DNA from: Candidatus Omnitrophota bacterium
GTDB taxonomy: Bacteria; Omnitrophota; Gorgyraeia; Gygaellales; Profunditerraquicolaceae
DNA: 64,000 nucleotides
Direction of reading: 5' to 3'
NCBI GenBank assembly: GCA_028716965.1
Contig: JAQUOV010000009.1
Coordinates: forward strand, 22,043-86,042
Below the pieces are notes generated by a model, which saw only the letters and a list, made by a program, of their open reading frames with translations, was not told the DNA's origin and searched no databases. The position numbers were made by a program, and so were the translations under genes. Positions 4,018 to 52,972 of this stretch are shown one piece after another (the stretch's first letter is position 1; each line of letters starts with the position of its first letter).

Positions 4018-4440
4018 TCATTCTATTTCTCCCAACAAGCCGGAGATTTCGCTTTGTATGTAATCAGAGAGTTCTGCTTTATTTTCGGCGTATTCAATAA
4101 TCTTATCAAGATCTTTCCATTTTACCTCTTTGCCGCTTTTGACTAACGACAGGATAAGAGTCTTGGCGCAAACCTTATAATAACCCGCATAATACCCCTC
4201 CCCGTTATTCCCCAAGATTACAACCTGAAACTCCAATTTTCCCGAAGCCAGGGCACCCTTAAATTCAGTTTCTATCGCTTCCTTGCAGTTTCTCTCCAGA
4301 TCACGGCAACTCGGACTGCGGGATGTACCGCGAAAATAATACACTATAACTTTACCGCTTGGTTGATTATCTGCACAAAGAGGGGAAATAAAATCAAGGC
4401 TAACCCAAACAATAAAAAAAATCAAGAATATTCTTTTCAT
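4018..4440 (-). CDS. Secreted hypothetical protein (signal peptide, three Cys)
   Basis: N-terminal MKRIFLIFFIVWVSLDFISPLCA signal-peptide-like segment. It sits 5 nt downstream of the ArsP-like permease and is probably co-transcribed with it. Confidence 0.5.
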   Translation of the reverse strand: MKRIFLIFFIVWVSLDFISPLCADNQPSGKVIVYYFRGTSRSPSCRDLERNCKEAIETEFKGALASGKLEFQVVILGNNGEGYYAGYYKVCAKTLILSLVKSGKEVKWKDLDKIIEYAENKAELSDYIQSEISGLLGEIE

Positions 4441-4445
4441 TCTTT

Positions 4446-5405
4446 CTAAAGCAGGATCTTTTGCAAGAAATTAAACAAATAACCCGTAAAGATAATCGCT
4501 ACCGTAGTCACCATAAAGAATATAGCGATTAATTTTAGCTGCATCGCCCTTCTCAGCATAACTGCCTCAGGAAGGCTTAATGCTGCGACTGCCATCATAA
4601 AAGCTAACGCCGTACCAAGCGGGAATCCTTTCTGGAATAAAGCTACGGCTATAGGTACGATTGCGGCGCAGCTTCCGTACATTGGCACCCCGATAATTGT
4701 AGCAAGCGGCACACTAAAAAAACCTGTCTTGCTTATGAGGTTTCTAACAAGCTCCTGTGGTACAAAATTATGTATTAATGCGCCCAGGCCTACTCCTATT
4801 AAAACCCAAAACCAAAGTTTTTTAATAATCGTGCTTGCCTCTTTCACTCCAAACAATATACGACCCTTAAAACCTTTTGAGTCCTTTTCAAAGCAATCCT
4901 GGTTATTCTGGCTGATTAAATCTTTTACAAGATACCTTTCCAGCTTCATTTTTCCTAAAATAATTCCGGAAACAACTCCTATTATTATGCCGCTTAAAAC
5001 GTAAAAAAATGTGATTTTAAAACCAAAAAAACCGAGCATCAGCACAACAAGATACTCATTAATCAAAGGCGAGCTGATCAGAAACGAAAAGGTCACCCCC
5101 AAAGGTACCCCTGCTTCCAGAAAGCTTATAAATATGGGTATTGAGGAACAGGAACAAAACGGGGTTATTGCGCCGAATATTGAAGCCAGAAAATGCGGAA
5201 ATATTTTCTTTCCGGCAAGCCACTGCTTTATTTTATCTGCCGGTAAATATGACCTAAGAAACCCGATAGCAGAGATTAAAATAAATAAAAGCAATAAAAT
5301 CTTTACAGAATCATAAATAAAGAAGTTTACTGCCTGAGCCAATTTGGCCTGCGGGCTTAATTTAAATAAAGAATAGGTCAGCCAATCTACAATTAACTGC
5401 AGCAT
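4446..5405 (-). CDS. ArsP/DUF318 (COG0701) family permease
   Basis: 319 aa polytopic membrane protein with the characteristic TPFCSCSSIP cysteine motif of the PF03773 ArsP-type permeases. Confidence 0.8.
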   Translation of the reverse strand: MLQLIVDWLTYSLFKLSPQAKLAQAVNFFIYDSVKILLLLFILISAIGFLRSYLPADKIKQWLAGKKIFPHFLASIFGAITPFCSCSSIPIFISFLEAGVPLGVTFSFLISSPLINEYLVVLMLGFFGFKITFFYVLSGIIIGVVSGIILGKMKLERYLVKDLISQNNQDCFEKDSKGFKGRILFGVKEASTIIKKLWFWVLIGVGLGALIHNFVPQELVRNLISKTGFFSVPLATIIGVPMYGSCAAIVPIAVALFQKGFPLGTALAFMMAVAALSLPEAVMLRRAMQLKLIAIFFMVTTVAIIFTGYLFNFLQKILL

Positions 5406-5492
5406 GATTTCTTGCCTGCCTTCTTCTCATTACAACAACAAGATTTTGTTTTTGCTTTTTCTTGCATTTTCTTATCCAGCCTATCGATCATC
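5395..5492 (-). CDS. Possible 32-aa cysteine-rich small ORF (MIDRLDKKMQEKAKTKSCCCNEKKAGKKSCCS) overlapping the permease start
   Basis: ATG at about 5490-5492, between DUF134 #1 and the permease. Its stop overlaps the permease ATG in a different frame. It has six Cys in 32 aa. It is below the 60-aa cutoff of the ORF track, and the exact frame depends on a 1-nt ambiguity in my reading near 5400. Confidence 0.3.
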
Positions 5493-5529
5493 CTGGCAAA
5501 TAACCCCTTTTTTCTTCCCTCTTGATTAG

Positions 5530-5841
5530 TCAAGCCTTCCATCCAGACCTCCTTTTAATCTTGCAACAACCTCCTTCAATTTTAATCGCTTTTATGTTTA
5601 CCAGGCCATCCGCTACTTTCCTTCTTGCCAATGCTACGATACGCGAAAATGTCGGACGGGATATGCGCATAAGCCTGGCGGCATCTGCCTGCTTTAATCT
5701 CTCAAGATCAGCTAAACGCATAGCTTCAAACTCATCAAGGCTAAGATAAACATTCTGAAGCCTGCTAAGCGGTTTACAGCGCGGCTTAAAGCACCTCTCC
5801 GCCGGAACGCATTTCACCCACCTGGTCTTTTTAGGCCGCAA
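5530..5841 (-). CDS. DUF134 / UPF0251-family predicted DNA-binding protein (paralog 1)
   Basis: 103 aa, MRPKKTRWVKCVPAERCFKPRCKPL…LSLDEFEAMRLADLERLKQADAARLMRISRPTFSRIVALARRKVADGLVNIKAIKIEGG. This matches the DUF134 architecture: an N-terminal Cys-containing arm plus a sigma-70 region-4-like HTH. It uses a TTG start with an AAGGAG RBS. Confidence 0.8.
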   Translation of the reverse strand: MRPKKTRWVKCVPAERCFKPRCKPLSRLQNVYLSLDEFEAMRLADLERLKQADAARLMRISRPTFSRIVALARRKVADGLVNIKAIKIEGGCCKIKRRSGWKA

Positions 5842-5856
5842 ACCCTGCTCCTTTAG

Positions 5857-5906
5857 TTATGAACATATGTTCATAACAATTCTAACACAACCTTCTCCGT
5901 TGTCAA
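5857..5906 (-). promoter_or_regulatory. Sigma70-like promoter (TTGACA-16-TAGAAT) with a perfect 20-bp palindrome TTATGAACATATGTTCATAA immediately downstream of the -10 and upstream of the DUF134 #1 RBS
   Basis: Read on the minus strand: TTGACA (5901-5906), 16-nt spacer, TAGAAT (5879-5884), then the palindrome at 5857-5876, then AAGGAG-N9-TTG start. Confidence 0.5.
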
Positions 5907-5996: not shown

Positions 5997-6758
5997 TCAA
6001 TCTTTACCGAAAAGCAGGTTAAATGGCAATACAGCAATCCCCCAGGCGCCTTTTGCCCCGGTCTTGGCCGTACCCCAGGCCGAATTGAATGTATCCCCTA
6101 TTTGAGAAACCACCGGTATAATCTTCAGGTTGATTAACTTGCCTATATCTGTATTCTCTATTGCCTTAGAAACAACCAGCCTGACTACCTCTTGTTCGTC
6201 TAAAAGGTTAACAAACGCCGCATTTTTTATGCCGATCGGATAGATATGTTCTTTTTTATTCAACCCGCTATAATCAACAAACCTGACCTGGCCAACGCTT
6301 AATACCAACACATCAAAATAATAAGGCGTCTTGTCCTGTATAGCGGCATTTTTATCCCTTAAGGGGTTGATCTCTTCTATATTTACCTTGCCTTCCTTGT
6401 TTTTTATTATATTCAACCGTTTAAGATTTAAACCCAAAATATAAATATTCGGTTTCTTACGGGTAACCATTTCTACAGGGTCAAATACAAAATGGATCGC
6501 TTCAATATAGGCAAGCTCTCTTTCTTCAAAATCACCGGGGTTATAAACAGTTACACCGCTTACTCCCACATGCGCCAGCAAAGGAGAAAATTCTATTTCT
6601 TCTATCGAAACATTAATACCCAGGCCCTGCTCTATTTGCCCCTCTACAATCTCCTTGATCTTTAAATGTTTTGTAATAATAAAACTGGCGATTAAGAAAA
6701 TAACCAAAAGAAGAAAGATTATGCCGAACGCATAAACTAACCTTTTTACAACCTTCAT
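5997..6758 (-). CDS. Hypothetical membrane-anchored protein (single N-terminal TM)
   Basis: 253 aa with an N-terminal hydrophobic helix (LVYAFGIIFLLLVIFLIASFII). No family recognised. It lies downstream of the ABC-2 efflux genes. Confidence 0.45.
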   Translation of the reverse strand: MKVVKRLVYAFGIIFLLLVIFLIASFIITKHLKIKEIVEGQIEQGLGINVSIEEIEFSPLLAHVGVSGVTVYNPGDFEERELAYIEAIHFVFDPVEMVTRKKPNIYILGLNLKRLNIIKNKEGKVNIEEINPLRDKNAAIQDKTPYYFDVLVLSVGQVRFVDYSGLNKKEHIYPIGIKNAAFVNLLDEQEVVRLVVSKAIENTDIGKLINLKIIPVVSQIGDTFNSAWGTAKTGAKGAWGIAVLPFNLLFGKD

Positions 6759-6809
6759 CTCTTACGCATCCAATCCTTCCGCCCTATAGCTTACCTCAAT
6801 ATGCGGGCA

Positions 6810-7145
6810 TCAAAAACTTGAGGCAATGTTATTATCCACGATGGAAACTGCCTTAAGGGTGCCGTCGGGAGCCTTATAATATTGCACATTCACCGTGTCA
6901 TTGGATTCCAGGTCGTCCAGCATTATATCGTCTATGCCGCGCTGTATCTTTGCGCCTTCCTCGACGTTAAACCTGGCTTCTTCAATGCCGTCGGATATTA
7001 CTAAAAGCGACCCGATAGAATCAACCTGGGTGACCACCCCTTCCCGGGAAAACATTTCATGGGTACTTTCTCCCTGCTCACAAAAGCTCAAGCCCGGGGC
7101 GATTAAAGAAACCGATAAAGCAGAAATACACAGCAATATTTTCAT
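6810..7145 (-). CDS. Small secreted hypothetical protein
   Basis: 111 aa with an N-terminal signal-peptide-like segment (MKILLCISALSVSLIAPGLSFC). Confidence 0.4.
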   Translation of the reverse strand: MKILLCISALSVSLIAPGLSFCEQGESTHEMFSREGVVTQVDSIGSLLVISDGIEEARFNVEEGAKIQRGIDDIMLDDLESNDTVNVQYYKAPDGTLKAVSIVDNNIASSF

Positions 7146-7197
7146 ACCCTCTCCCTCCTTTTAGTATCAACAGGTATATATCATAATGTTCATGGTG

Positions 7198-8325
7198 TTA
7201 AGCTATCTTCTTTCTGAACCTTAACGTACTCATGGTAATTACAAAGATACCAAAGACCAAAAGAATCAGGAAATTAGTCCATAAGATATCCATGCCTACG
7301 CCTTTTAAAAATATCCCCCTGATGATCACCAGATAATAACGCATAGGGTTAATCAAAGTAAAGTACTGGATAATTTGGGGCATATTAGCTATAGGATAAG
7401 CAAATCCCGACAGTAAAAATGTCGGCATATAAAACAAAAATACCGACATCATCGCCTCCTGTTGGGTTGAGGCTATCGTGGAGATAAACAGCCCTATGCC
7501 TAAAGCAGTAAATAAATACACACAGGTAGCAAGCACCAATAAAGCCAGGCTGCCCCTGAACGGGATATGGAACCATAAGATACCCAGCGTAGTGATCAAG
7601 GCGCATTGAATGAGCGCGATCACGCCGAACGGCAGGAGCTTGCCGAAGATAAGCTCAAGCGGACGCAGAGGGCTGACGATAAGCTGCTCCATGGTACCGA
7701 TCTCTTTTTCCCTTACTATTGCCATAGCCGTCAATAAAAGAGACATGATCGTTACTATTGAAGCAATTACTCCCGGTAAATAATAATTCCGCGAGATGAG
7801 GTTTTCATTAAACCAGGCGCGGTCCCTTAAATCCACGCTTGGGGCATCGGATTGTATGCCCAAAGAATCAGCATCTCCCCTGATCAACTCATCCTGGTAT
7901 TTATTCATAATCGTGTTTGCGTACCCGGAGATGATCATGGCGGTATTGGAATCCGAGCCGTCAAGGGCAAGCTGCACGCTTGCATCTTTTCCGGCTTTAA
8001 TATCGCGCCCAAACCCGCGGTCAATGCGCAAGACAGCGCTTACTATCCCTTTATCCAACATATGGTCTTCTTCAGTTCCAGTGGAAATATAATACTTCGG
8101 GATAAAATATTTAGAGTAGGTAAATCTATGTAGAAGCTGTCGGCTTTCTTTGGTGTTATCCTGGTCGTAGATCGCCGTAGGTATAAAATCAATATCTTTA
8201 TTGGCAGCATACCCAAAAATGACTATCTGTATAAGAGGCGAAATCAAAATTACTGTTTTCATCCGCGGGTCACGCAGGACCTGCTTAAACTCTTTAATCA
8301 GGATAGCCTTGATCCTCTCAAGCAT
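7198..8325 (-). CDS. ABC-2 type transporter permease (YbhR/YhhJ-like)
   Basis: 375 aa with 6 C-terminal TM helices and a large N-terminal periplasmic loop, typical of ABC-2 permeases. It follows a paralogous permease. Confidence 0.8.
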   Translation of the reverse strand: MLERIKAILIKEFKQVLRDPRMKTVILISPLIQIVIFGYAANKDIDFIPTAIYDQDNTKESRQLLHRFTYSKYFIPKYYISTGTEEDHMLDKGIVSAVLRIDRGFGRDIKAGKDASVQLALDGSDSNTAMIISGYANTIMNKYQDELIRGDADSLGIQSDAPSVDLRDRAWFNENLISRNYYLPGVIASIVTIMSLLLTAMAIVREKEIGTMEQLIVSPLRPLELIFGKLLPFGVIALIQCALITTLGILWFHIPFRGSLALLVLATCVYLFTALGIGLFISTIASTQQEAMMSVFLFYMPTFLLSGFAYPIANMPQIIQYFTLINPMRYYLVIIRGIFLKGVGMDILWTNFLILLVFGIFVITMSTLRFRKKIA

Positions 8326-8326
8326 T

Positions 8327-9460
8327 TCAAAACACCTTCTTTCTAAATTTCATTATCGCCAAACTAAACATAAAAAGCGCAAATAAAAATAAAAACAACG
8401 CGTCATCCCACATCACATCCATGCCGTTACCTTTTAAAAATAACCCGCGCAGGATAATAATATAATAACGCGCAGGGATGAGATAGGTTATCGCCTGGAC
8501 TGCCTGGGGCATATTAAATATAGGATAGATAAAACCGGATAAAAGCATCGTTGGTATAAAAGTAGTTAACATCGCAAGCTGGCTTGCCAATAATTGCGTC
8601 CTGGCTACCGTAGAGATTAATATTCCCTGCGAGAGGGCACCGGTCAAAAATAAGGCGCTTAAAAATACTAGCAGCAGGTAGCTGCCCTTAAAAGGCACGC
8701 CGAATAAGAACCTGGCCATAACTACTGCCACAAAAAGGTCAATGAAACCGATTACAAAATACGGCAGGAATTTGCCGATGATTAACTCCGGGGCTTTAAC
8801 AGGAGTTGAAATTAACTGCTCCATAGTCCCTCTTTCCCATTCCCTGGCTACACATATAGAGGTAAGCAAGGCGGCAATAATCATGATAATCATCGCGATT
8901 ACCCCCGGGACAATAAACCATCTGCTGTTTAACCCCATATTAAACCAGACCCTTGAACGCATCTCTACGCTCCTTGCAGGGCTGAAACCCCTGCCTCTAA
9001 GCGTATTTACCAAAAGCGTCAGATTATACCTGCCAACCACCGAACGCACATAGCCCATGGCAATAGTAGCGGTATTGGAATCGCTGCCGTCAACTAATAA
9101 CTGTAGTGGGGCAGTCTTACCGGATTCAATAAAGTGCGAAAAGTCTTTTGGGATTACCAGGGCCATCAACGCATCTCCGCTGTCAATCATGTGCTGGATA
9201 GTGCGGTAATTATCAGTATATTTAATGATCTTAAAATATTTGGAGTTCTTGAAATTAAGCAGGAAATCACGCGAGACCCTGGATGAAGCATCCTGGTTCC
9301 AGACAACGGTCTGCACCCTGTCAATATCAAGTGATAAACCATAGCCAAAAATCAGGAGTAATATAACCGGTATAACTATGGCCAGGCCCAGCGAACGCGG
9401 GTCGCGCCGGATCTGAATAAACTCCTTGTTGGATATTGCTAAGACCCTTTTGAAATTCAT
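8327..9460 (-). CDS. ABC-2 type transporter permease (YbhS-like)
   Basis: 377 aa paralog of the permease at 7198-8325. Its start overlaps the ATPase stop (ATGA). Confidence 0.8.
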   Translation of the reverse strand: MNFKRVLAISNKEFIQIRRDPRSLGLAIVIPVILLLIFGYGLSLDIDRVQTVVWNQDASSRVSRDFLLNFKNSKYFKIIKYTDNYRTIQHMIDSGDALMALVIPKDFSHFIESGKTAPLQLLVDGSDSNTATIAMGYVRSVVGRYNLTLLVNTLRGRGFSPARSVEMRSRVWFNMGLNSRWFIVPGVIAMIIMIIAALLTSICVAREWERGTMEQLISTPVKAPELIIGKFLPYFVIGFIDLFVAVVMARFLFGVPFKGSYLLLVFLSALFLTGALSQGILISTVARTQLLASQLAMLTTFIPTMLLSGFIYPIFNMPQAVQAITYLIPARYYIIILRGLFLKGNGMDVMWDDALFLFLFALFMFSLAIMKFRKKVF

Positions 9461-10422
9461 TTATCCTTATGTTCTGCGTCGTAATTCTCTATCAGCGAAA
9501 CAAACACATCCTCAAGGGAAGCCTTGATCTTATTGACGGAATAAGCGCTCGCCTTTTCCTGTTCAAAAAGCTTCTTTAATTCAAGCGTTCCTTTCTGCGC
9601 GTCATAAGTAACCGCGTGTATATTTACCCCAAAAAGCGCAGTATCCTTGATGGAATCAAGCCGGGATATTTTTTCAAGCCACCCCTGAGCCTGCGGTATA
9701 CTGATCTCAAGTATCTCATGTTTCATCACCTTGGTCTTCATCTCTTCAGGCGAGCCCATGGCGATCATTGTACCGTGATAGATCATTACCAGCCGGTTGC
9801 AGTTCTCTGCCTCATCCATATAATGAGTAGTCACAAAGATTGTGCGCCCTAAAGAAGCCATCTCCCTGATTACGCTCCAGAAATTGGCCCTGGTGATCGG
9901 GTCAACCCCGGAGGTCGGCTCGTCGAGAAAAATGATCTTCGGCTGATGGATTATCGCACACCCTAAAGCCAAACGCTGTTTCCATCCTCCGGACAAGGTG
10001 CTAGTCAGGCTGGTGCGGAAATCCTCTATGCCTGCTAACTGGATGGTTCCATCCTTACGCTTCTTTCTTTCCTTCTCAGGTATGTTATATATCCGGCTGT
10101 AAAAATCTATATTTTCCTCTACAGTAAGGTCATCATAAAGCGAGAACTTCTGGGACATGTAACCTATATGCTGTTTAATCTTGTATTGTTCCCTGATAAT
10201 ATCAAAACCCCCTACGCTGCCGCTGCCGGAAGTAGGCGTATATATGCCGCAGAGCATCCTGATGGTCGTGGATTTCCCCGCTCCGTTAGGCCCCAGAAAG
10301 CCGAAGATCTCCCCTTCTCGGACCTCAAAGTTGATATGGTTAACCGCTGTAAAATCGCCGAACTTCTTCTCCAGATCCTGAACTTTTACAGCAATGCCTT
10401 TATTCTCCATGTTCAGATTCAT
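9457..10422 (-). CDS. ABC transporter ATP-binding protein with C-terminal extension (YbhF-like second half)
   Basis: Walker A GPNGAGKST, signature LSGGWKQRL, Walker B IIFLDEPTSGVD, plus a C-terminal accessory domain of about 95 aa. Confidence 0.85.
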   Translation of the reverse strand: MNLNMENKGIAVKVQDLEKKFGDFTAVNHINFEVREGEIFGFLGPNGAGKSTTIRMLCGIYTPTSGSGSVGGFDIIREQYKIKQHIGYMSQKFSLYDDLTVEENIDFYSRIYNIPEKERKKRKDGTIQLAGIEDFRTSLTSTLSGGWKQRLALGCAIIHQPKIIFLDEPTSGVDPITRANFWSVIREMASLGRTIFVTTHYMDEAENCNRLVMIYHGTMIAMGSPEEMKTKVMKHEILEISIPQAQGWLEKISRLDSIKDTALFGVNIHAVTYDAQKGTLELKKLFEQEKASAYSVNKIKASLEDVFVSLIENYDAEHKDK

Positions 10423-47059: not shown

Positions 47060-47689
47060 TTACTTCTCTTTTTTTGCCACGAGGACAGTTTGGCAGCTGC
47101 CATAATAACTCTTTACGCTGAAGCCGAGTTTCTTAAGCAACCTTCCTGCCGAGCTTAACGGCATTTTAGAAGCATGATGTTTATGCCCCTCTAAACCATG
47201 CACTCTCTGCATTACACGCTGGCCTTTTCTGTTCAAATCTGCAATTACCAGTTTTTCCTTAGTTACCCTGGCCATCTCCTTGATGCATTTAACCGGATTC
47301 TTGGCATGATGGATAAAATTTACCGAAATCACGTTATTAAAATACCGGTCAGCATAGCCTAATTTTTCGGCGTCCATTATCTTAAATGAGGCGAATTTAT
47401 CCAGCTTCACTGCCTTGAGGTTGGCTCTGGCGGTATTTTGAGCCTGCTTGTCCAGGTCAATCGAAACAAACCTGAATCCCCTCTTTGCCAAAGCTAATGC
47501 CATATGCCCCCTGCCGGTGCCGATCTCAAGCGTCCTCGCCTTGCCAAGCCCGGCTTTAGCAAGAATAAAATCCCTGGCTTTAGGGACATCATAGCCGTAT
47601 TGCTTAAAAAGCTTTATTTTCTCCTGATCCTGCCTTAAAAGGCTGTTCATTTGATCTTCCATCTCCTCAAAATCGACATCATCGGGCAC
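47060..47689 (-). CDS. Class I SAM-dependent methyltransferase
   Basis: Motif I LEIGTGRGHMALALA, plus post-I (D-loop) and motif II-like segments. Confidence 0.7.
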   Translation of the reverse strand: MPDDVDFEEMEDQMNSLLRQDQEKIKLFKQYGYDVPKARDFILAKAGLGKARTLEIGTGRGHMALALAKRGFRFVSIDLDKQAQNTARANLKAVKLDKFASFKIMDAEKLGYADRYFNNVISVNFIHHAKNPVKCIKEMARVTKEKLVIADLNRKGQRVMQRVHGLEGHKHHASKMPLSSAGRLLKKLGFSVKSYYGSCQTVLVAKKEK

Positions 47690-47838: not shown

Positions 47839-49119
47839 CTAAAAACTGTACCTAAGCCGCACAAACGCATTCTTATTTTTTTTCATCATCCCGAAATCGG
47901 TAATCATATCTTCACCCCATGGGATATTGACTCCAAAGGTCAGTTTCCACTGGTCGGTAATATCATATGCGCATGAAGCGCGCAGATAACCATCCTTATC
48001 GGAAGGCGACCAGAAATTAAACAGCCCCAGCATCACAGTCTGGTTCTTAAACAGTTTTGTGACCCGTTGAGTCAAAAGGTGGCGATATTCATCCCAGCAA
48101 TAATCCCCGGTAACCAATGCTGACCGATAATCTGAATAATTAAGCTTCTGCTCATAAAGATACTGCAAGCCGATCTTCAGATCATTACCCATATCCTTTT
48201 CATAGCCAACCAGCAACTTTAACAGGGAGTTTTCAATAAGCCGGTTATCTCCGTTGGGGTCCTGGCGCGAACGGTAATACCCCATCTCTACATTGCCTAT
48301 ACCTGAAGCAAATGGCCCGCGCAGACTGGCACCGTAAGCGTCCAAGCGCTCGTAAAAAAGCTGTAAGTTGGCTTCGTCCAAATAGCTGCGCGGCGACGGG
48401 TCAAACCCGCGGTAATAATATAAGGCGCCTTCCGTGCTGTCAAAATTCCGGTATAGCCGTAATGCGTACTGCATGTTTTTTGCCTTAAATGCCGGCTTGA
48501 CCGCGTTACGCCGGCTATCTCTGCCCACAATACCGCCCTGAAAACTGTCAAAGAAAGAAAGCCGGTCTCCGTCCGGCATGGTATTCGGGGTAAAATCGGG
48601 GATAAGCACGAAATCAATATTCACCATTTTAGGATAAAGCGATACACGCAAGGCATCGGAAGGCTCTTTCAAATACTCATCATCCCTGCCGATATAGAAA
48701 GAGACGTAATCCTTAGGGAAAAAATCATTGATAAAAATATAATCGCCCGTACCCCAGGTCAAAATCTGCCGGCCGGCCTTAATATCCATGATATTGGTTG
48801 GGCTAAAAGCAAGGTTAAGCTCGCGCAGATCAAAAGAGCCGGTGGTATCAAAATACTCATCCAGGAGAAAATCCCCTTTATAGGTAAGCACCCCGTTCCA
48901 TTGGGATATAATGTTTGCGCCGGGGATGGGGTAGCGGGTCTTAAGCTGCAGGCGCTGCTCAAGCATATTATAATCCCTGTGCTTGGTCAGCGTATCATGG
49001 CTGATCCTGTATCCGTATGCCTGCTCAGCGAAACCGTGCCATTCAGGCAGCTCTATAGCCTGCGCAGAAGAAACGAAGATAAATAGTATCGATAAACCTA
49101 TAAAAAATATACGTTTCAA
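47839..49119 (-). CDS. Outer-membrane beta-barrel protein (DUF1302-like) associated with the MMPL exporter
   Basis: Signal peptide, beta-strand periodicity, C-terminal …RLRYSF. Confidence 0.5.
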   Translation of the reverse strand: MKRIFFIGLSILFIFVSSAQAIELPEWHGFAEQAYGYRISHDTLTKHRDYNMLEQRLQLKTRYPIPGANIISQWNGVLTYKGDFLLDEYFDTTGSFDLRELNLAFSPTNIMDIKAGRQILTWGTGDYIFINDFFPKDYVSFYIGRDDEYLKEPSDALRVSLYPKMVNIDFVLIPDFTPNTMPDGDRLSFFDSFQGGIVGRDSRRNAVKPAFKAKNMQYALRLYRNFDSTEGALYYYRGFDPSPRSYLDEANLQLFYERLDAYGASLRGPFASGIGNVEMGYYRSRQDPNGDNRLIENSLLKLLVGYEKDMGNDLKIGLQYLYEQKLNYSDYRSALVTGDYCWDEYRHLLTQRVTKLFKNQTVMLGLFNFWSPSDKDGYLRASCAYDITDQWKLTFGVNIPWGEDMITDFGMMKKNKNAFVRLRYSF

Positions 49120-49123
49120 ATCT

Positions 49124-49963
49124 TTACTCTTTCAGCCATTGCTGCGGCGGGTTACGCAGGAAACGTTCGGTGAATATACTATCATTTAAGCCTATATTGT
49201 AAGATATATCGCTAAACTCCGTAACGGTATCGGAGTTTGAGTTTAAATCCATGGCCTTCATCCTGGTAACAGTAGGATAATTCTGGATATCCTTTACTTC
49301 AAGGGCTTCAATAGTACGGTAAGGCTTGCCTGTTTTATCAAAATACTCTGCCCTCATCGGGACAAAGTTATTCCTGTCAATCTTGACCGTATAATACGAA
49401 AACTCAACTAATGCCGCGTCCTTAGGCGTATTCTTTACGGTGTAGTAAGCTGGGTCGCTGGCAATCAACTCATGCTCATCCAGGTCTATGGACCTGCCGG
49501 ATATATCCTCGTACAAAAATGTAGTGCCGACAAAACTTGAGCGTTTATCAGAAGCGGCGATACGGCGCACCAGGTCCATAGCCGGTAGATATAGCCAACG
49601 GTCATCATCCTTACCCACATGCTTCCAGACTATATAACTCATTCCTTTAACGTCATTTGGCTTATGGAAATACACGTAATATTTCTGGTCTCCCCCTGCT
49701 TTAAGGTTAAGTTTTAAGATCGTCAACTGGCGCTCTCGCTTGCGGCCCTGCGCGTCAGTTACTACCATCTTTGCCTTGGCCCTTCCCTCCTTACCCTGGT
49801 AATAAGAAGCATTGTTTGCCTTGCTGACGATCTCATCAACGCTTAGCTCCTGGGCCCAGGAGTAAGCGGCAAAAAATAGCACTGCTAAAAAAACTAATAA
49901 TTTTCTCATCTTCCCTCCTTTAATTTCAGGTACCATCTTTACATGTTTTCTGCCGCGAAACAA
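49124..49963 (-). CDS. LolA-like outer-membrane lipoprotein-sorting family protein (MMPL-associated)
   Basis: Secreted protein of about 280 aa. This fold family typically sits next to MMPL/HpnN-type RND exporters. It overlaps the MMPL gene by 38 nt. Confidence 0.5.
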   Translation of the reverse strand: MFRGRKHVKMVPEIKGGKMRKLLVFLAVLFFAAYSWAQELSVDEIVSKANNASYYQGKEGRAKAKMVVTDAQGRKRERQLTILKLNLKAGGDQKYYVYFHKPNDVKGMSYIVWKHVGKDDDRWLYLPAMDLVRRIAASDKRSSFVGTTFLYEDISGRSIDLDEHELIASDPAYYTVKNTPKDAALVEFSYYTVKIDRNNFVPMRAEYFDKTGKPYRTIEALEVKDIQNYPTVTRMKAMDLNSNSDTVTEFSDISYNIGLNDSIFTERFLRNPPQQWLKE

Positions 49964-52436
49964 GCCAGCAGGTCCCGGACAAAACCGCTATAACTGCCAC
50001 GCAGATTATCGTCGTTAGATTAAGGCGGGCCAATTTATATCCTAAAAGTATATATGCCACCGTAGAAGCAATAATAATTGACATCAATATACATTTCCCG
50101 CATGAACAAACAGCTTTGACCTTTGTTTCTTCAAATACCAGCCAGGGGAAACCCGTAATAAGGGCAGGCAGTATCATAAGGGTAGCGATGCTGGCCACCA
50201 GCATAATCGCAAACATAAAGAAACCCACCGTATTATACGGAACAAGCGGCGAGGCAAAAAGCGGCAGGAAGCCAATAGAGATCACCAGCGCGTTTTTAAT
50301 CAGCGCCCTTGCCGGCGAACCAAACATCTCCTGGGCAGTTTTAGGCCAGCTTTTATTTTCCGCATAGAACATGCGCGAGCGCTCGATAAAATGGACGGCA
50401 AAATCAACCGCAAGGCCCAATGTCAAGGCTGATAATACTGCAACCGGCATATCATATTCCTTGCCCGTAAAACCAAGCAGGCTGTAAATAAACAAAATTG
50501 TAACCGTAAGCGGCAGCATAGACAGAAGCCCGGTAACCGGGGACTTAAAAAGTACGGTCATCATGAATAGGACGATGATGAAACTGCCGAGAAAATTTAT
50601 CAACATGCCGCCTACCATCTTATTCTGCCATACCATATTGATATACGTCAAGCCGGCCCAGTTATACGATAAGGCAAACGGCGCGGGGTTCATCTTGAAA
50701 AACTTATCAACCTGCCTTACTACCTCCGACATCTGCTGATTATCTCCCGAAGGCAGCTGCAGCCAGATATTTGCCCTGGAATAATCCGGATTAACGAAAT
50801 GCCATAGGTCATCGGGTTTATGCGAGTTCTCAAAGGATATCAGCGTCTGCGCCACTGCCTGAGGCGTAGGAGGTATTACCTTATTCTTTTTAGTTCCCCC
50901 CAGAAGCTCATAATAAACCTTTCTGGTGACATCCGCTAAAGAAGTGGACTTGCCCACGCTGCCCTTTTCAAACAAATACCCCTGCAGGCCCTGGATGTAG
51001 CGCAGCATCTGCGGCTCCAGGAAGACCTGCGCGTCTTTATCTTTGGCCTCAAGCACCAGATAAACGCTATAGGTGCCGCCGAAATGTTTATTGAGCACTT
51101 TATCGGCAACCCTGATCGGATGTTTCCGGTTAAACCACCTGGTAGGGTTATCATTGATATGTATGCGGGTAATGCCGTAAATAGAAAGGGCGATCAGCGC
51201 AACAGAAGCGAATAAGACCTGTTTCCAGCGTAAAACCGTAAATCTTCCCCAGGCAGCCAGCGAGCGGCTTAGACGCCCCTTACCTATATCATCTTCATGC
51301 ACCCCGAAACTACCCATCTTCTTCTCATCAAGAAGCGCGATATAAGCAGGTATCATCAATACTGTAAGCACCCAGGCCAGGGCAACGCCGAATGCCACTG
51401 CGATGCCGAATACCTGCACAGGAGGTATCGGCGCAAAAGAAAGCGAGAAAAAACCGGCAACCGTGGTCAAAGAGGTAAATAGGTTCGGACGGTAGAGCTC
51501 ATTAAGTACATAAGAGATGGTTTTATTCTTGTCCTTGAATGTGCGGTATTTCTCAAAGAATTCATTCAAAATATGGATGGAATCAAGCACGGATATGGGC
51601 AGGAGGAATATAGGTATCATGGAGCTCATAATATGTATGGGAAAACCCAACCACACCAAAAGGCCCATGGTGATAATAACCACAATTATTGCCATGACCA
51701 ACGGCATGATTACCAGCGCCACGTGCTTGAAGAACCACCACATGAGCAGAAATATTACCAAAACTGCCAAAGGAGCCGAAATACCCATTTGCCAGAACAT
51801 CTCAACCCCAAAGGCATCCTCGGCTAAAGGCAGGCCGGTAAGATAATACTGCTCGTCTCCGGAATACTCTTTGAGAACTTTCTGGATTGATCTTGCCACA
51901 CGGTAACTAAGTTTTTTCGCTTTAATCGGGACATAAATACACAGTGCCTTGCCGTCGCCAGAGATAAGCGTGTCGTAAAACAACGGGTTTTCTAAAGCGC
52001 GTGTTTTAATGCGTAAAGCATCAGCTGAAGTATACGGGGGCTCCCCCATCAACCAACGGAAACTAATTGCCCCCGGCCCAGCCTGTTCTATATCATCTTT
52101 ATTTGCCAGGCTCATCAATTCATACCCAATAACACCGTCTATTTTCTTTACCTGGCCGGCAATCTTATATATCTTCTCCAGGGTCTCCGGGTTAAATACG
52201 CCGTTAGGGTCTTTTTCATTAACCACCCCTAATACAACATAATCATAAATAGTAAACTCTTTCTTGACCTCATGATTGAAGACACGGACAAACTCTTTTT
52301 CAGGGAGCATATTTTCGGGATCAGTATCCACTTTTACCCGGGTAAATGCCGCCAGCGATGCCAATACTAATAGCAGAATAATAGAAAATATAAGCTTTGG
52401 TCTCTTTAGGGCAAATGCCACAAGTTTATCGATCAT
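49926..52436 (-). CDS. RND-superfamily exporter of the MMPL/HpnN type (two 6-TM sterol-sensing-like halves with periplasmic domains)
   Basis: 836 aa with a 12-TM duplicated topology and two large periplasmic loops. Confidence 0.8.
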   Translation of the reverse strand: MIDKLVAFALKRPKLIFSIILLLVLASLAAFTRVKVDTDPENMLPEKEFVRVFNHEVKKEFTIYDYVVLGVVNEKDPNGVFNPETLEKIYKIAGQVKKIDGVIGYELMSLANKDDIEQAGPGAISFRWLMGEPPYTSADALRIKTRALENPLFYDTLISGDGKALCIYVPIKAKKLSYRVARSIQKVLKEYSGDEQYYLTGLPLAEDAFGVEMFWQMGISAPLAVLVIFLLMWWFFKHVALVIMPLVMAIIVVIITMGLLVWLGFPIHIMSSMIPIFLLPISVLDSIHILNEFFEKYRTFKDKNKTISYVLNELYRPNLFTSLTTVAGFFSLSFAPIPPVQVFGIAVAFGVALAWVLTVLMIPAYIALLDEKKMGSFGVHEDDIGKGRLSRSLAAWGRFTVLRWKQVLFASVALIALSIYGITRIHINDNPTRWFNRKHPIRVADKVLNKHFGGTYSVYLVLEAKDKDAQVFLEPQMLRYIQGLQGYLFEKGSVGKSTSLADVTRKVYYELLGGTKKNKVIPPTPQAVAQTLISFENSHKPDDLWHFVNPDYSRANIWLQLPSGDNQQMSEVVRQVDKFFKMNPAPFALSYNWAGLTYINMVWQNKMVGGMLINFLGSFIIVLFMMTVLFKSPVTGLLSMLPLTVTILFIYSLLGFTGKEYDMPVAVLSALTLGLAVDFAVHFIERSRMFYAENKSWPKTAQEMFGSPARALIKNALVISIGFLPLFASPLVPYNTVGFFMFAIMLVASIATLMILPALITGFPWLVFEETKVKAVCSCGKCILMSIIIASTVAYILLGYKLARLNLTTIICVAVIAVLSGTCWLVSRQKTCKDGT

Positions 52437-52480
52437 TCTTTGTCTCCTTCAAAAAAATCTGCTTTTTTATAAATCATTCG

Positions 52481-52816
52481 TTATTTTTTATGTTTTATTT
52501 TTGCAACCGTATATGTCCCGCCGCCTATCCGGATGGCCTTGCCGCAAAAAAGCGCCTCGGCTACTTTTTTGCGGGCGGATTCAATGATATTGCCGAAGGT
52601 CTGGCGGGAAATACCCATCTTCTTTGCCGCATCCGCCTGGTACATCCCCTGGCGGTCGGCAAAACACATTGCCTCGCACTCATCAATAGTCAAAACCAGC
52701 TCTTCCAGCAAAGCCAGAGGTATCCCCTTAGGCTTAAAATATCTTACCTTAGGTTCCCCCCTGACACAACGGCATTTTCTCGGCCGGCCGCGATCCCTTT
52801 TCATATTTTTTAGCAT
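52481..52816 (-). CDS. DUF134 / UPF0251-family predicted DNA-binding protein (paralog 2)
   Basis: 111 aa, …MKRDRGRPRKCRCVRGEPKVRYFKPKGIPL…TIDECEAMCFADRQGMYQADAAKKMGISRQTFGNIIESARKKVAEALFCGKAIRIGGG. Collinear with paralog 1. Confidence 0.8.
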   Translation of the reverse strand: MLKNMKRDRGRPRKCRCVRGEPKVRYFKPKGIPLALLEELVLTIDECEAMCFADRQGMYQADAAKKMGISRQTFGNIIESARKKVAEALFCGKAIRIGGGTYTVAKIKHKK

Positions 52817-52851
52817 ATGCTAATAATATAACAGAGAGATCTATTTGTCAA
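52810..52851 (-). promoter_or_regulatory. Sigma70-like promoter TTGACA-17-TATTAT with palindrome TTAGCATATGCTAA overlapping the -10, transcription start and start codon of DUF134 #2
   Basis: On the minus strand, -35 at 52846-52851, -10 at 52823-52828 and the palindrome at 52810-52823. The predicted transcript would be leaderless or nearly so. Confidence 0.5.
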
Positions 52852-52909
52852 TAGATTATTGCGTATTTATTTTATGAGTCAACAGAAGAACGATCTTTCC
52901 AGGCAGATA

Positions 52910-52972
52910 AAACGGCTATGACCGCTGTTTAGGTCATAGCCGTTAGGTTAACCCCGTAAGCCACGGGGTAAT
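52910..52972 (-). terminator. Two perfect hairpins downstream of hflC (12-bp stem AACGGCUAUGAC/GUCAUAGCCGUU; 7-bp stem ACCCCGU/ACGGGGU)
   Basis: Perfect inverted repeats with a weak U-tract. Probable hflKC terminators or an RNA-stability element. Confidence 0.4.

Follow-up and report, generated by a model that had tools for sequence, protein, structure and literature searches.

We analysed a window of 64,000 nucleotides (the whole stretch introduced above, at its full length) from a Candidatus Omnitrophota bacterium, which contains two genes of the DUF134/UPF0251 family, here called paralog 1 and paralog 2. The main finding concerns a palindromic site at 52807-52826 on the minus strand, at the promoter and start codon of paralog 2. 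This site is probably the operator of the DUF134 protein encoded just downstream, which would repress its own leaderless exporter operon. The sequence-only reading of the window had taken the palindrome for a protein-binding operator, and comparison across loci places it within a ~20-bp site that is conserved at DUF134 gene or operon promoters in many phyla. The same reading had supposed that these regulators follow an operator code of their own; we find that residue 76 of the recognition helix co-varies perfectly with base ±5 of the operator.

The arrangement on the minus strand (TTGACA, a 17-nt spacer, TATTAT and the palindrome) agrees with what had been described from the sequence alone, and in the promoter scan the hexamer pair with this spacer matches 11/12 consensus positions. 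One point is amended: the functional unit would be the ~20-bp site, of which the 14-mer is only the core. The features of this promoter are the following:

52846..52851, minus strand: -35 hexamer TTGACA of the DUF134 paralog-2 promoter, invariant across the ortholog loci
52823..52828, minus strand: -10 hexamer TATTAT, separated from the -35 by a 17-nt spacer; also the outer part of the left operator arm
52810-52823, minus strand: perfect 14-nt palindrome TTAGCATATGCTAA, a single occurrence in the window
52807..52826, minus strand: predicted 20-bp DUF134 operator, left arm TTATTAGCAT and right arm ATGCTAAAAA, with the 14-mer core at 52810-52823 and the centre, between 52817 and 52816, at the predicted +1
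52814..52816, minus strand: ATG at the operator centre, opening the open reading frame 52481-52816; its A is the 7th nt after the -10
52481..52816, minus strand: DUF134 paralog 2, 111 amino acids (aa) including MLKN (PF02001, E=3.9e-26, 91.9 bits against a cut-off of 27)

Distribution and conservation of the operator

The comparison was widened by 80 DUF134 loci drawn from species-representative genomes, which span many phyla, among them Omnitrophota, Desulfobacterota, Planctomycetota, Elusimicrobiota, Spirochaetota, Acidobacteriota and Chlorobi. The counts below are over 87 non-redundant loci. The motif GCATATGC is found within 130 nt upstream of the DUF134 gene in 62/87 loci, where by our own estimate ~0.2 occurrences of a given 8-mer are expected across 87 such regions. 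Nine more loci carry the full palindrome at an operon promoter 0.5-2.8 kb upstream, with DUF134 as a later gene. The extended form TTAT[T/G][A/G]GCATATGC[C/T][A/C]ATAA is present at the own promoter of ~80% of the 87 loci. The symmetrised consensus of 65 sites reads TTAT[T/G][A/G]GCAT in the left arm and ATGC[C/T][A/C]ATAA in the right arm, and the TTAT and ATAA flanks are near-invariant. A position weight matrix (PWM) built from these 65 sites (median training site, 32.3 bits) finds just two positions of at least 8 bits in the 64-kb window, one before each DUF134 gene: 52805 (31.8 bits) and 5855 (17.9 bits). The score at paralog 1 is low because of the A at ±3. No additional operator sites are found in the window, and the region before MMPL in the orthologs has none either; a larger local regulon is therefore not indicated. 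In the full-text literature search on DUF134, PF02001, UPF0251, COG1342 and the motif cores, no paper characterising the family or the site was found; the matches are unrelated DUF134x families, primers and a coincidental EBNA1 site TAGCATATGCTA. Rfam has no family matching the window region or the promoters of 18 related loci; its sole match is a group II intron (RF02005, RF00029) at L074:1531-3472, upstream of a DUF134 gene and unrelated to the operator.

Orthologs of paralog 2 are found in 14 loci with 76-82% identity (L001-L011 from metagenomes, L013-L015 from genomes). They retain cTTGACA, the 17-nt spacing, TATTAT (or TAATAT) and TGGCATATGCTAAAAAAT; the spacer itself and the region upstream of the -35 have diverged. 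After the -10 comes TGGCAT and then ATG, exactly 6 nt past the -10, in the 14 loci. All ortholog loci with enough downstream sequence keep the order DUF134, MMPL, LolA_like and 426-aa protein. The synteny holds in 13 loci, and the tie of palindrome and regulator to the MMPL module that had been proposed for the window is thereby supported. In the other DUF134 loci L016-L092 the MMPL/LolA_like/barrel synteny is absent; the MMPL cargo is restricted to the paralog-2 clade. An A/T-rich block (…AAAATAAT…) at 52855-52882 on the minus strand, ~10-25 nt upstream of the -35, is also conserved among the paralog-2 orthologs. In the window this block scores promoter-like too (TTGACT, 16 nt, AATAAT); an UP element and a tandem promoter are both conceivable.

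Concerning the start of translation, no Shine-Dalgarno sequence is present upstream of the paralog-2 ATG; the downstream genes do have GGAGG-type ones. The window shows the succession of TATTAT, 6 nt and ATG with no Shine-Dalgarno, as do all ortholog loci whose upstream sequence is long enough. Since the -10 lies six nt upstream and a Shine-Dalgarno is absent, the mRNA is expected to be leaderless, and its 5' end is predicted at the ATG because the A of that codon is the 7th nt after the -10. The ortholog proteins begin with MLKN, or with MLEN, MPIN, MPEN or MPVK, and in 7/10 orthologs examined the reading frame has no further ATG, GTG or TTG ahead of the conserved R11-P12. As the orthologs start at the palindrome ATG and mostly have no alternative in-frame start, its role as the true initiation codon is supported, and the leaderless start suggested by the sequence-only reading agrees with this.

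The first four codons differ from the rest of the gene in their conservation. Among the orthologs their third positions are 100% conserved, compared with 0.72 in codons 11-100, and the Leu2 codon is always CTA, where other invariant leucines use 3-4 synonymous codons. In L015 the peptide is changed to MPIN and the DNA is still a good half-site (ATGCCAATAA). The retention of the half-site despite MPIN, together with the frozen codons 1-4, therefore points to a constraint on the DNA and not on the peptide; the operator appears to constrain the first four codons at the DNA level. In another ortholog locus (L011:5940-6204) the promoter, operator and MLKN start are kept, ~27 conserved N-terminal codons are missing or frameshifted, and an intact MMPL operon lies behind; this DUF134 copy is possibly a pseudogene or an assembly error.

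Recognition-helix residue 76 and the proposed mechanism

Both window proteins pass the gathering threshold of PF02001 (27 bits), with 91.9 bits for paralog 2 and 79.5 bits for paralog 1, and both miss the equivalog cut-off of NCBIfam NF003257 (115 bits), with 65.8 and 57.5 bits; they are best classed as family relatives, not NF003257 equivalogs. Residues R11, P12, R16, P29, S70, R71, T73 and F74 are invariant or nearly so in 96 sequences, and paralog 2 has all of them, as well as the family signature, which consists of the N-terminal segment R-P-x-K-C-R-x-V ... F-K-P-x-G and the helix S-R-Q-T-F-G. Its recognition helix reads S70-R71-Q72-T73-F74-G75-N76. In the AlphaFold2 model (predicted local distance difference test, pLDDT, 79.5) a helix-turn-helix is formed by H60-67 and H71-91, and residue 76 is the sixth residue of the recognition helix H71-91. 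In helix-turn-helix proteins, recognition-helix positions 1, 2 and 6 usually face the bases. The nearest solved folds (Foldseek) are region 4 of ECF sigma factors and the DNA-binding domains of SorC/DeoR/LsrR (probability ~1.0, E of at least 0.058, TMq ~0.43 over ~49 aa). A PDB sequence search found no relative, and Sigma70_r4_2 matches paralog 1 weakly (19.4 bits, cut-off 25.7).

The covariation of residue 76 with the operator is perfect at the level of loci: Asn76 is found with T at ±5 in 39 loci and Arg76 with G in 39 loci. Looking at each half-site separately, Asn76 occurs with T in 78/78 cases. Arg76 half-sites have G 54 times, A 23 times and T 3 times, and most of those with A belong to the promoter-proximal arm, the one that in most Arg-type loci also serves as a TATAAT -10. 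When all columns of the protein alignment are scanned against the operator class, residue 76 reaches a mutual information of 1.0 bit, the maximum, and the next column 0.53. The Asn state is found in at least 2-3 separate clades (neighbour-joining tree; Fitch parsimony, 5 changes), and the covariation is therefore not one single split. Three loci fetched later all obey the rule. So do the two window paralogs, paralog 2 having N76 and T in both arms, and paralog 1 R76 and G in both arms. Arginine-guanine and asparagine-adenine are classical protein-DNA contacts. We infer that DUF134 itself binds the palindrome, presumably as a dimer.

A rule linking Pro72 to a deviant GCAT core (4/4 loci) was downgraded to a tendency, as L101 has P72 with a canonical core; both cores are canonical in 0/4 loci with Pro72 versus 70/73 with Gln72. 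At position ±4 the base is A or G, and a single site often carries a different base in each arm.

The two types also differ in promoter register. The operator centre is at the predicted +1 or +2 in 30/39 Asn-type loci, with the left arm serving as the -10, and at -17 in 29/40 Arg-type loci, with the right arm serving as the -10. Paralog 2 has an offset of 0, the commonest Asn-type register, and paralog 1 an offset of +6, a minority register common to its orthologs.

In the mechanism that we propose, a DUF134 dimer would place its sigma-region-4-like helix-turn-helix on the 20-bp palindrome formed by TTATTAGCAT and ATGCTAAAAA. As the left arm is the -10 and the centre is the predicted transcription start, the bound dimer would shut out RNA polymerase and repress its own operon; an operator overlapping a near-consensus sigma-70 promoter is the signature of a repressor acting by promoter occlusion. 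The repressed operon would comprise DUF134, the MMPL/HAE3-like transporter, the LolA-like protein, the outer-membrane barrel and possibly the methyltransferase. A leaderless mRNA would begin at the A of the palindrome ATG, and for this reason the right half-site would double as codons 1-4 (MLKN). Residue 76 would largely set the half-site specificity, Asn76 reading T:A at ±5 and Arg76 G:C (in paralog 1 with a private A at ±3); with differing residues and half-sites, each paralog should therefore recognise its own operator only. The repressor would be released by a signal, possibly sensed via the five cysteines kept in the paralog-2 clade (C15, C17, C47, C51 and C91). These are clade-specific and not family-wide: paralog 1 carries a different set, and many DUF134 relatives have a C-terminal CxxC...CPxC ribbon. 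That the cysteines serve in thiol, metal or iron-sulfur (Fe-S) sensing is speculation.

Weighing of alternative explanations

Several points weigh against the site at 52807-52826 being a self-repressing DUF134 operator. Dinucleotide shuffles yield 5.6 ± 2.0 perfect palindromes of at least 14 nt, and the window contains 4. In paralog 2 the right half-site, TTTTTAGCAT, departs from the consensus TTATTAGCAT, and the left arm of the orthologs has G where a perfect palindrome requires A (13/14 positions); most relatives therefore have an imperfect palindrome. The Asn/Arg covariation may rest on as few as 2-3 independent evolutionary events. One Planctomycetota clade of Arg76 type (L026, L039, L041, L045, L053, L054, L060 and L086) has no recognisable operator within 3 kb. 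The public annotation of the protein (P0001) has 107 aa and starts at a second ATG, 52804. Also, the paralog-2 half-site is not private: every Asn76-type DUF134 protein has it as its canonical half-site. If the genome encodes another Asn-type DUF134, that protein could act on this site too, and cross-talk is possible. As side observations, most of the DUF134 genes of the Planctomycetota clade come after a gene ending in …ICDH and a stop codon, and a weak candidate site CATTGTGAGCAGTTTGCCATTAT lies ~300 nt upstream in L041 and L045. The window also holds two further perfect palindromes, CTCCTGGGCCCAGGAG and TTTACCCGGGTAAA (49847-49862 and 52333-52346), within coding sequence, a number that fits chance.

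The palindrome counts would suit a chance by-product, in which CAT followed by the ATG start gives CATATG between AT-rich promoter flanks and nothing binds; the 14-mer pattern with up to 2 mismatches, too, occurs once in the window where 0.45 occurrences are expected. This window-internal test is at chance level and is not evidence against the site, the significance of the palindrome stemming from the comparative data alone. DUF134 promoters of different phyla share the extended motif, even where its ATG is no start codon or where the motif lies in untranscribed spacer, and its variable base co-varies with a protein residue, which makes a chance origin extremely improbable. We give equally little credence to a role in RNA, as a 5' hairpin affecting stability or translation. 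A fully transcribed palindrome can fold, and the paralog-1 site is probably mostly transcribed, but in paralog 2 the right half alone lies downstream of the predicted +1, 29 Arg-type sites lie untranscribed between -35 and -10, and there is no Rfam match. A real operator bound by another conserved regulator of DUF134 operons is very unlikely. Co-occurrence of site and gene does not by itself name the binder, and many DUF134 operons encode Fe-S or NifX-like proteins and would be open to a global iron or redox regulator. What speaks for DUF134 itself is that the covariation with ±5 falls on a canonical base-contacting helix position with no other column near it, that the paralog-1 clade pairs a private helix with a private core (GAACAT), and that the site always accompanies a DUF134 gene, the window having two sites and two DUF134 genes.

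We regard each of two further alternatives as unlikely. DUF134 could act as an activator, a sigma-like recruiter or a dual-function factor and not as a simple autorepressor: its helix-turn-helix is closest to sigma-70 region 4, and with operator arms resembling -10 hexamers (TATTAT or TATAAT), cooperation with sigma contacts, or their replacement, is conceivable. Against this, the sigma-70 -35 and -10 are near-perfect with 17-nt spacing and should hence be strong without an activator, the centres at +1 or -17 are classical occlusion positions, and DUF134 has no region-2-like domain. Translation could also begin at the second ATG (52804), after a 12-nt leader without a Shine-Dalgarno, in which case the palindrome would merely overlap the 5' untranslated region. 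The Pfam match in paralog 2 starts at residue 5, the NCBI annotation has 107 aa, and the canonical family N-terminus M-x-R-P is unextended. However, Met5 is absent in all orthologs examined, 7/10 of which have no in-frame start between the palindrome ATG and R11, and MLKN is conserved; the deposited P0001 coding sequence is probably four codons short. Taken with these points, the self-repressing operator of the DUF134 gene just downstream is the reading that we consider likely.

Operon context, paralog 1 and related systems

The sequence-only reading had also stated that the ATG lies within the palindrome and that a 44-nt gap separates the gene from a cluster encoding an MMPL exporter, a LolA-like protein and an outer-membrane protein; these statements hold for the sequence. 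The features around paralog 2 are the following:

52437..52480, minus strand: 44-nt intergenic gap between DUF134 and MMPL (fold energy -3.8 kcal/mol, z -0.46)
49926..52436, minus strand: MMPL/RND-superfamily transporter, HAE3-like (PF03176, E=5e-25; Shine-Dalgarno GAAGGAG)
49124..49963, minus strand: LolA_like periplasmic protein, maximal open reading frame, true start probably further in (PF17131, E=6e-55; syntenic)
47839..49119, minus strand: putative 426-aa outer-membrane beta-barrel (signal peptide, C-terminal ...RLRYSF; syntenic)
47060..47689, minus strand: S-adenosylmethionine-dependent methyltransferase, possibly the last operon gene (syntenic in L001, L002 and L011)
52911..52969, minus strand: two adjacent strong hairpins with 8-bp and 13-bp stems, closing the upstream Band_7 operon (-34.4 kcal/mol, z -5.5)

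Folding finds no stable hairpin between DUF134 and MMPL (52437-52480), and as no structure separates the genes, co-transcription of the exporter genes with DUF134 is likely. The MMPL protein scores above the cut-off for PF03176 (88.6 against 20.5 bits) and below that for TIGR00921 (HAE3; 229 against 351.9 bits); it can be assigned to RND/MMPL, with the HAE3 subfamily uncertified. The 426-aa protein misses the DUF1302 threshold (13.2 against 23.2 bits, E=0.046), and only its signal peptide and C-terminal Phe point to a putative place in the outer membrane. The methyltransferase that closes the cluster has homologues beside unrelated DUF134 genes (L025, L027, L045, L060, L070, L077 and L085), and the enzyme may therefore be a regular member of DUF134 operons. 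Most full-length ortholog loci contain, between DUF134 and MMPL, a 115-aa C_GCAxxG_C_C 'redox-active' gene (PF09719; e.g. L001:535-882). This gene is gone from the window and from L010, and the 44-nt gap (…AAAAAAGCAGATTTTTTTGAAGGAGA) is probably its deletion scar. The double hairpin sits after the second Band_7/SPFH gene and has a short T-tract; it is likely a terminator, which would make the DUF134 promoter its own transcription unit.

The features of paralog 1, which shares 50% identity with paralog 2, are the following:

5856..5877, minus strand: paralog-1 operator, perfect 22-bp palindrome GTTATGAACATATGTTCATAAC, starting 2 nt after the -10
5860-5873, minus strand: paralog-1 14-nt palindrome TGAACATATGTTCA, within the 22-mer
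5906-5901 and 5884-5879, minus strand: paralog-1 promoter, -35 TTGACA, 16 nt, -10 TAGAAT
5530..5841, minus strand: DUF134 paralog 1, TTG start at 5841 (PF02001, E=2.9e-22; Shine-Dalgarno AAGGAG 5853-5848; helix SRPTFSR)
4018..5542, minus strand: cargo genes of the paralog-1 operon, namely a Cys-rich 49-aa open reading frame (5393-5542), an ArsP_1 permease (4446-5405) and an ArsF-like or thioredoxin-like 140-aa protein (4018-4440)

The claim that the architecture of paralog 2 matches that of paralog 1 holds only in part. Paralog 1 is not leaderless, since it has the Shine-Dalgarno AAGGAG, the TTG start at 5841 and an operator centre ~6 nt downstream of the predicted +1. The further claim of cognate but distinct half-sites is sustained: paralog 2, with N76, has TTATTAGCAT in the left and TTTTTAGCAT in the right arm, and paralog 1, with R76, has TTATGAACAT in both, so that the two operators have T versus G at ±5 and G versus A at ±3. 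The private helix SRPTFSR and the private core GAACAT of the paralog-1 clade are both kept in its orthologs (L093-L100), which conserve GTTATGAACAT[A/G][T/C]GTTCATAAC directly past their -10. The cargo genes of the paralog-1 operon are found in the orthologs too; every one of these DUF134 genes lies ahead of an ArsP_1 permease, accompanied by thioredoxin-like, DsbD_2 or cation-efflux genes.

Around paralog 1, a gene of 48-49 aa is called in L093-L095 at the place equivalent to the Cys-rich 49-aa open reading frame (…KSCCCNEKKAGKKSCCS; 5393-5542, minus strand), for which no Pfam match is found. Upstream of paralog 1 (5997-10422, minus strand) lie ABC-2 transporter, DUF5666 and DUF748/AsmA-like genes, which are syntenic in some ortholog loci (L093-L095). 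Other paralog-1 orthologs adjoin NikR, CbiMNQO or cation-efflux genes, a metal-related neighbourhood.

Compared with known systems, DUF134 has a helix-turn-helix fold similar to that of the SorC, DeoR (B. subtilis) and LsrR repressors (Foldseek 2w48, 7bhy, 8r7y and 4go1; ~40 aa, 0.6-0.9 Å root-mean-square deviation), which bind operators and act on their own operons. Their operators are palindromic. These repressors have a large sugar-phosphate-binding effector domain, whereas DUF134 has ~100 aa with a unique RPxKCRxV...FKPxG segment and short beta-strands; its sequence matches are far below the family thresholds, and the operator sequence is unrelated. Region 4 of ECF sigma factors provides the best structural neighbours (3hug, 5uxx, 5fgm and 2h27; ~49 aa, 0.7-1.0 Å); however, it binds an asymmetric -35 within the holoenzyme, whereas the DUF134 site is a 20-bp palindrome at +1 or -17 with TTGACA kept, and the matches are below the curated cut-offs. 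ArsR/SmtB, CsoR and MerR-type proteins are small metal- or thiol-sensing autorepressors heading efflux operons. DUF134 resembles them as a small Cys-containing regulator, first in a transporter operon with a palindrome over the core promoter, and paralog 1 does so further in heading an ArsP_1 operon, with orthologs near NikR, Cbi and cation-efflux genes; the fold and family of DUF134 differ, its cysteines are clade-specific and the sensing is putative. Lambda cI from PRM and tetR of Tn1721 are leaderless mRNAs of autoregulatory repressors. Paralog 2 has in common with them the predicted start at the A of the repressor AUG and the lack of a Shine-Dalgarno, but its operator is centred on +1, with a half-site inside codons 1-4 that would dictate the N-terminal residues.

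In diverse DUF134 loci, the first gene downstream encodes a NifX-like Nitro_FeMo-Co protein in 33/64 cases; the next commonest neighbours are NUBPL/Mrp-type P-loop ATPases, DUF5320, ferredoxin domains and methyltransferases. The window operons and these canonical ones have regulators of one family, a common operator consensus and an operator fused to the promoter. Their cargo, however, consists of envelope transporters (the MMPL module and the ArsP permease) and not of cofactor-handling proteins, and a predicted leaderless start together with an extended N-terminus is confined to the paralog-2 clade.

On a wider scale, we tentatively suggest that DUF134/UPF0251 may be a widespread, unrecognised family of cysteine-based (Fe-S, metal or redox) sensor-repressors with a ~20-bp operator in the core promoter in two fixed registers and a switch at residue 76 (Asn76 T:A, Arg76 G:C). 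The ancestral regulon would be of the NifX-like/Mrp-type cofactor kind; in Omnitrophota, duplicates would have been rewired to envelope transporters, one half-site being absorbed into codons 1-4 of a leaderless mRNA. Paralog 1 alone has >2,300 relatives, at least 592 loci are found in species-representative genomes, and the family occurs largely in lineages taken to be anaerobic. The regulatory logic, a helix-turn-helix autorepressor on a palindrome, is ordinary; what is new is the site, the specificity rule and a testable model for a long-standing domain of unknown function. DUF134 (COG1342, UPF0251), catalogued for decades, gains a predicted DNA target, a one-residue/one-base rule and a fixed operator-promoter geometry. 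Regulon prediction is thereby opened for any genome with a DUF134 gene, and the sigma-70-consensus promoters make the family directly testable in E. coli. The site also offers an entry point to obscure DUF134-headed operons (NifX-like, Mrp/NUBPL, DUF5320 and C_GCAxxG_C_C proteins), and the locus is a clean case of a coding sequence constrained by an operator. For this uncultivated Omnitrophota bacterium, the model predicts that a trans-envelope transporter composed of the MMPL, LolA-like and barrel proteins would be under DUF134 control.

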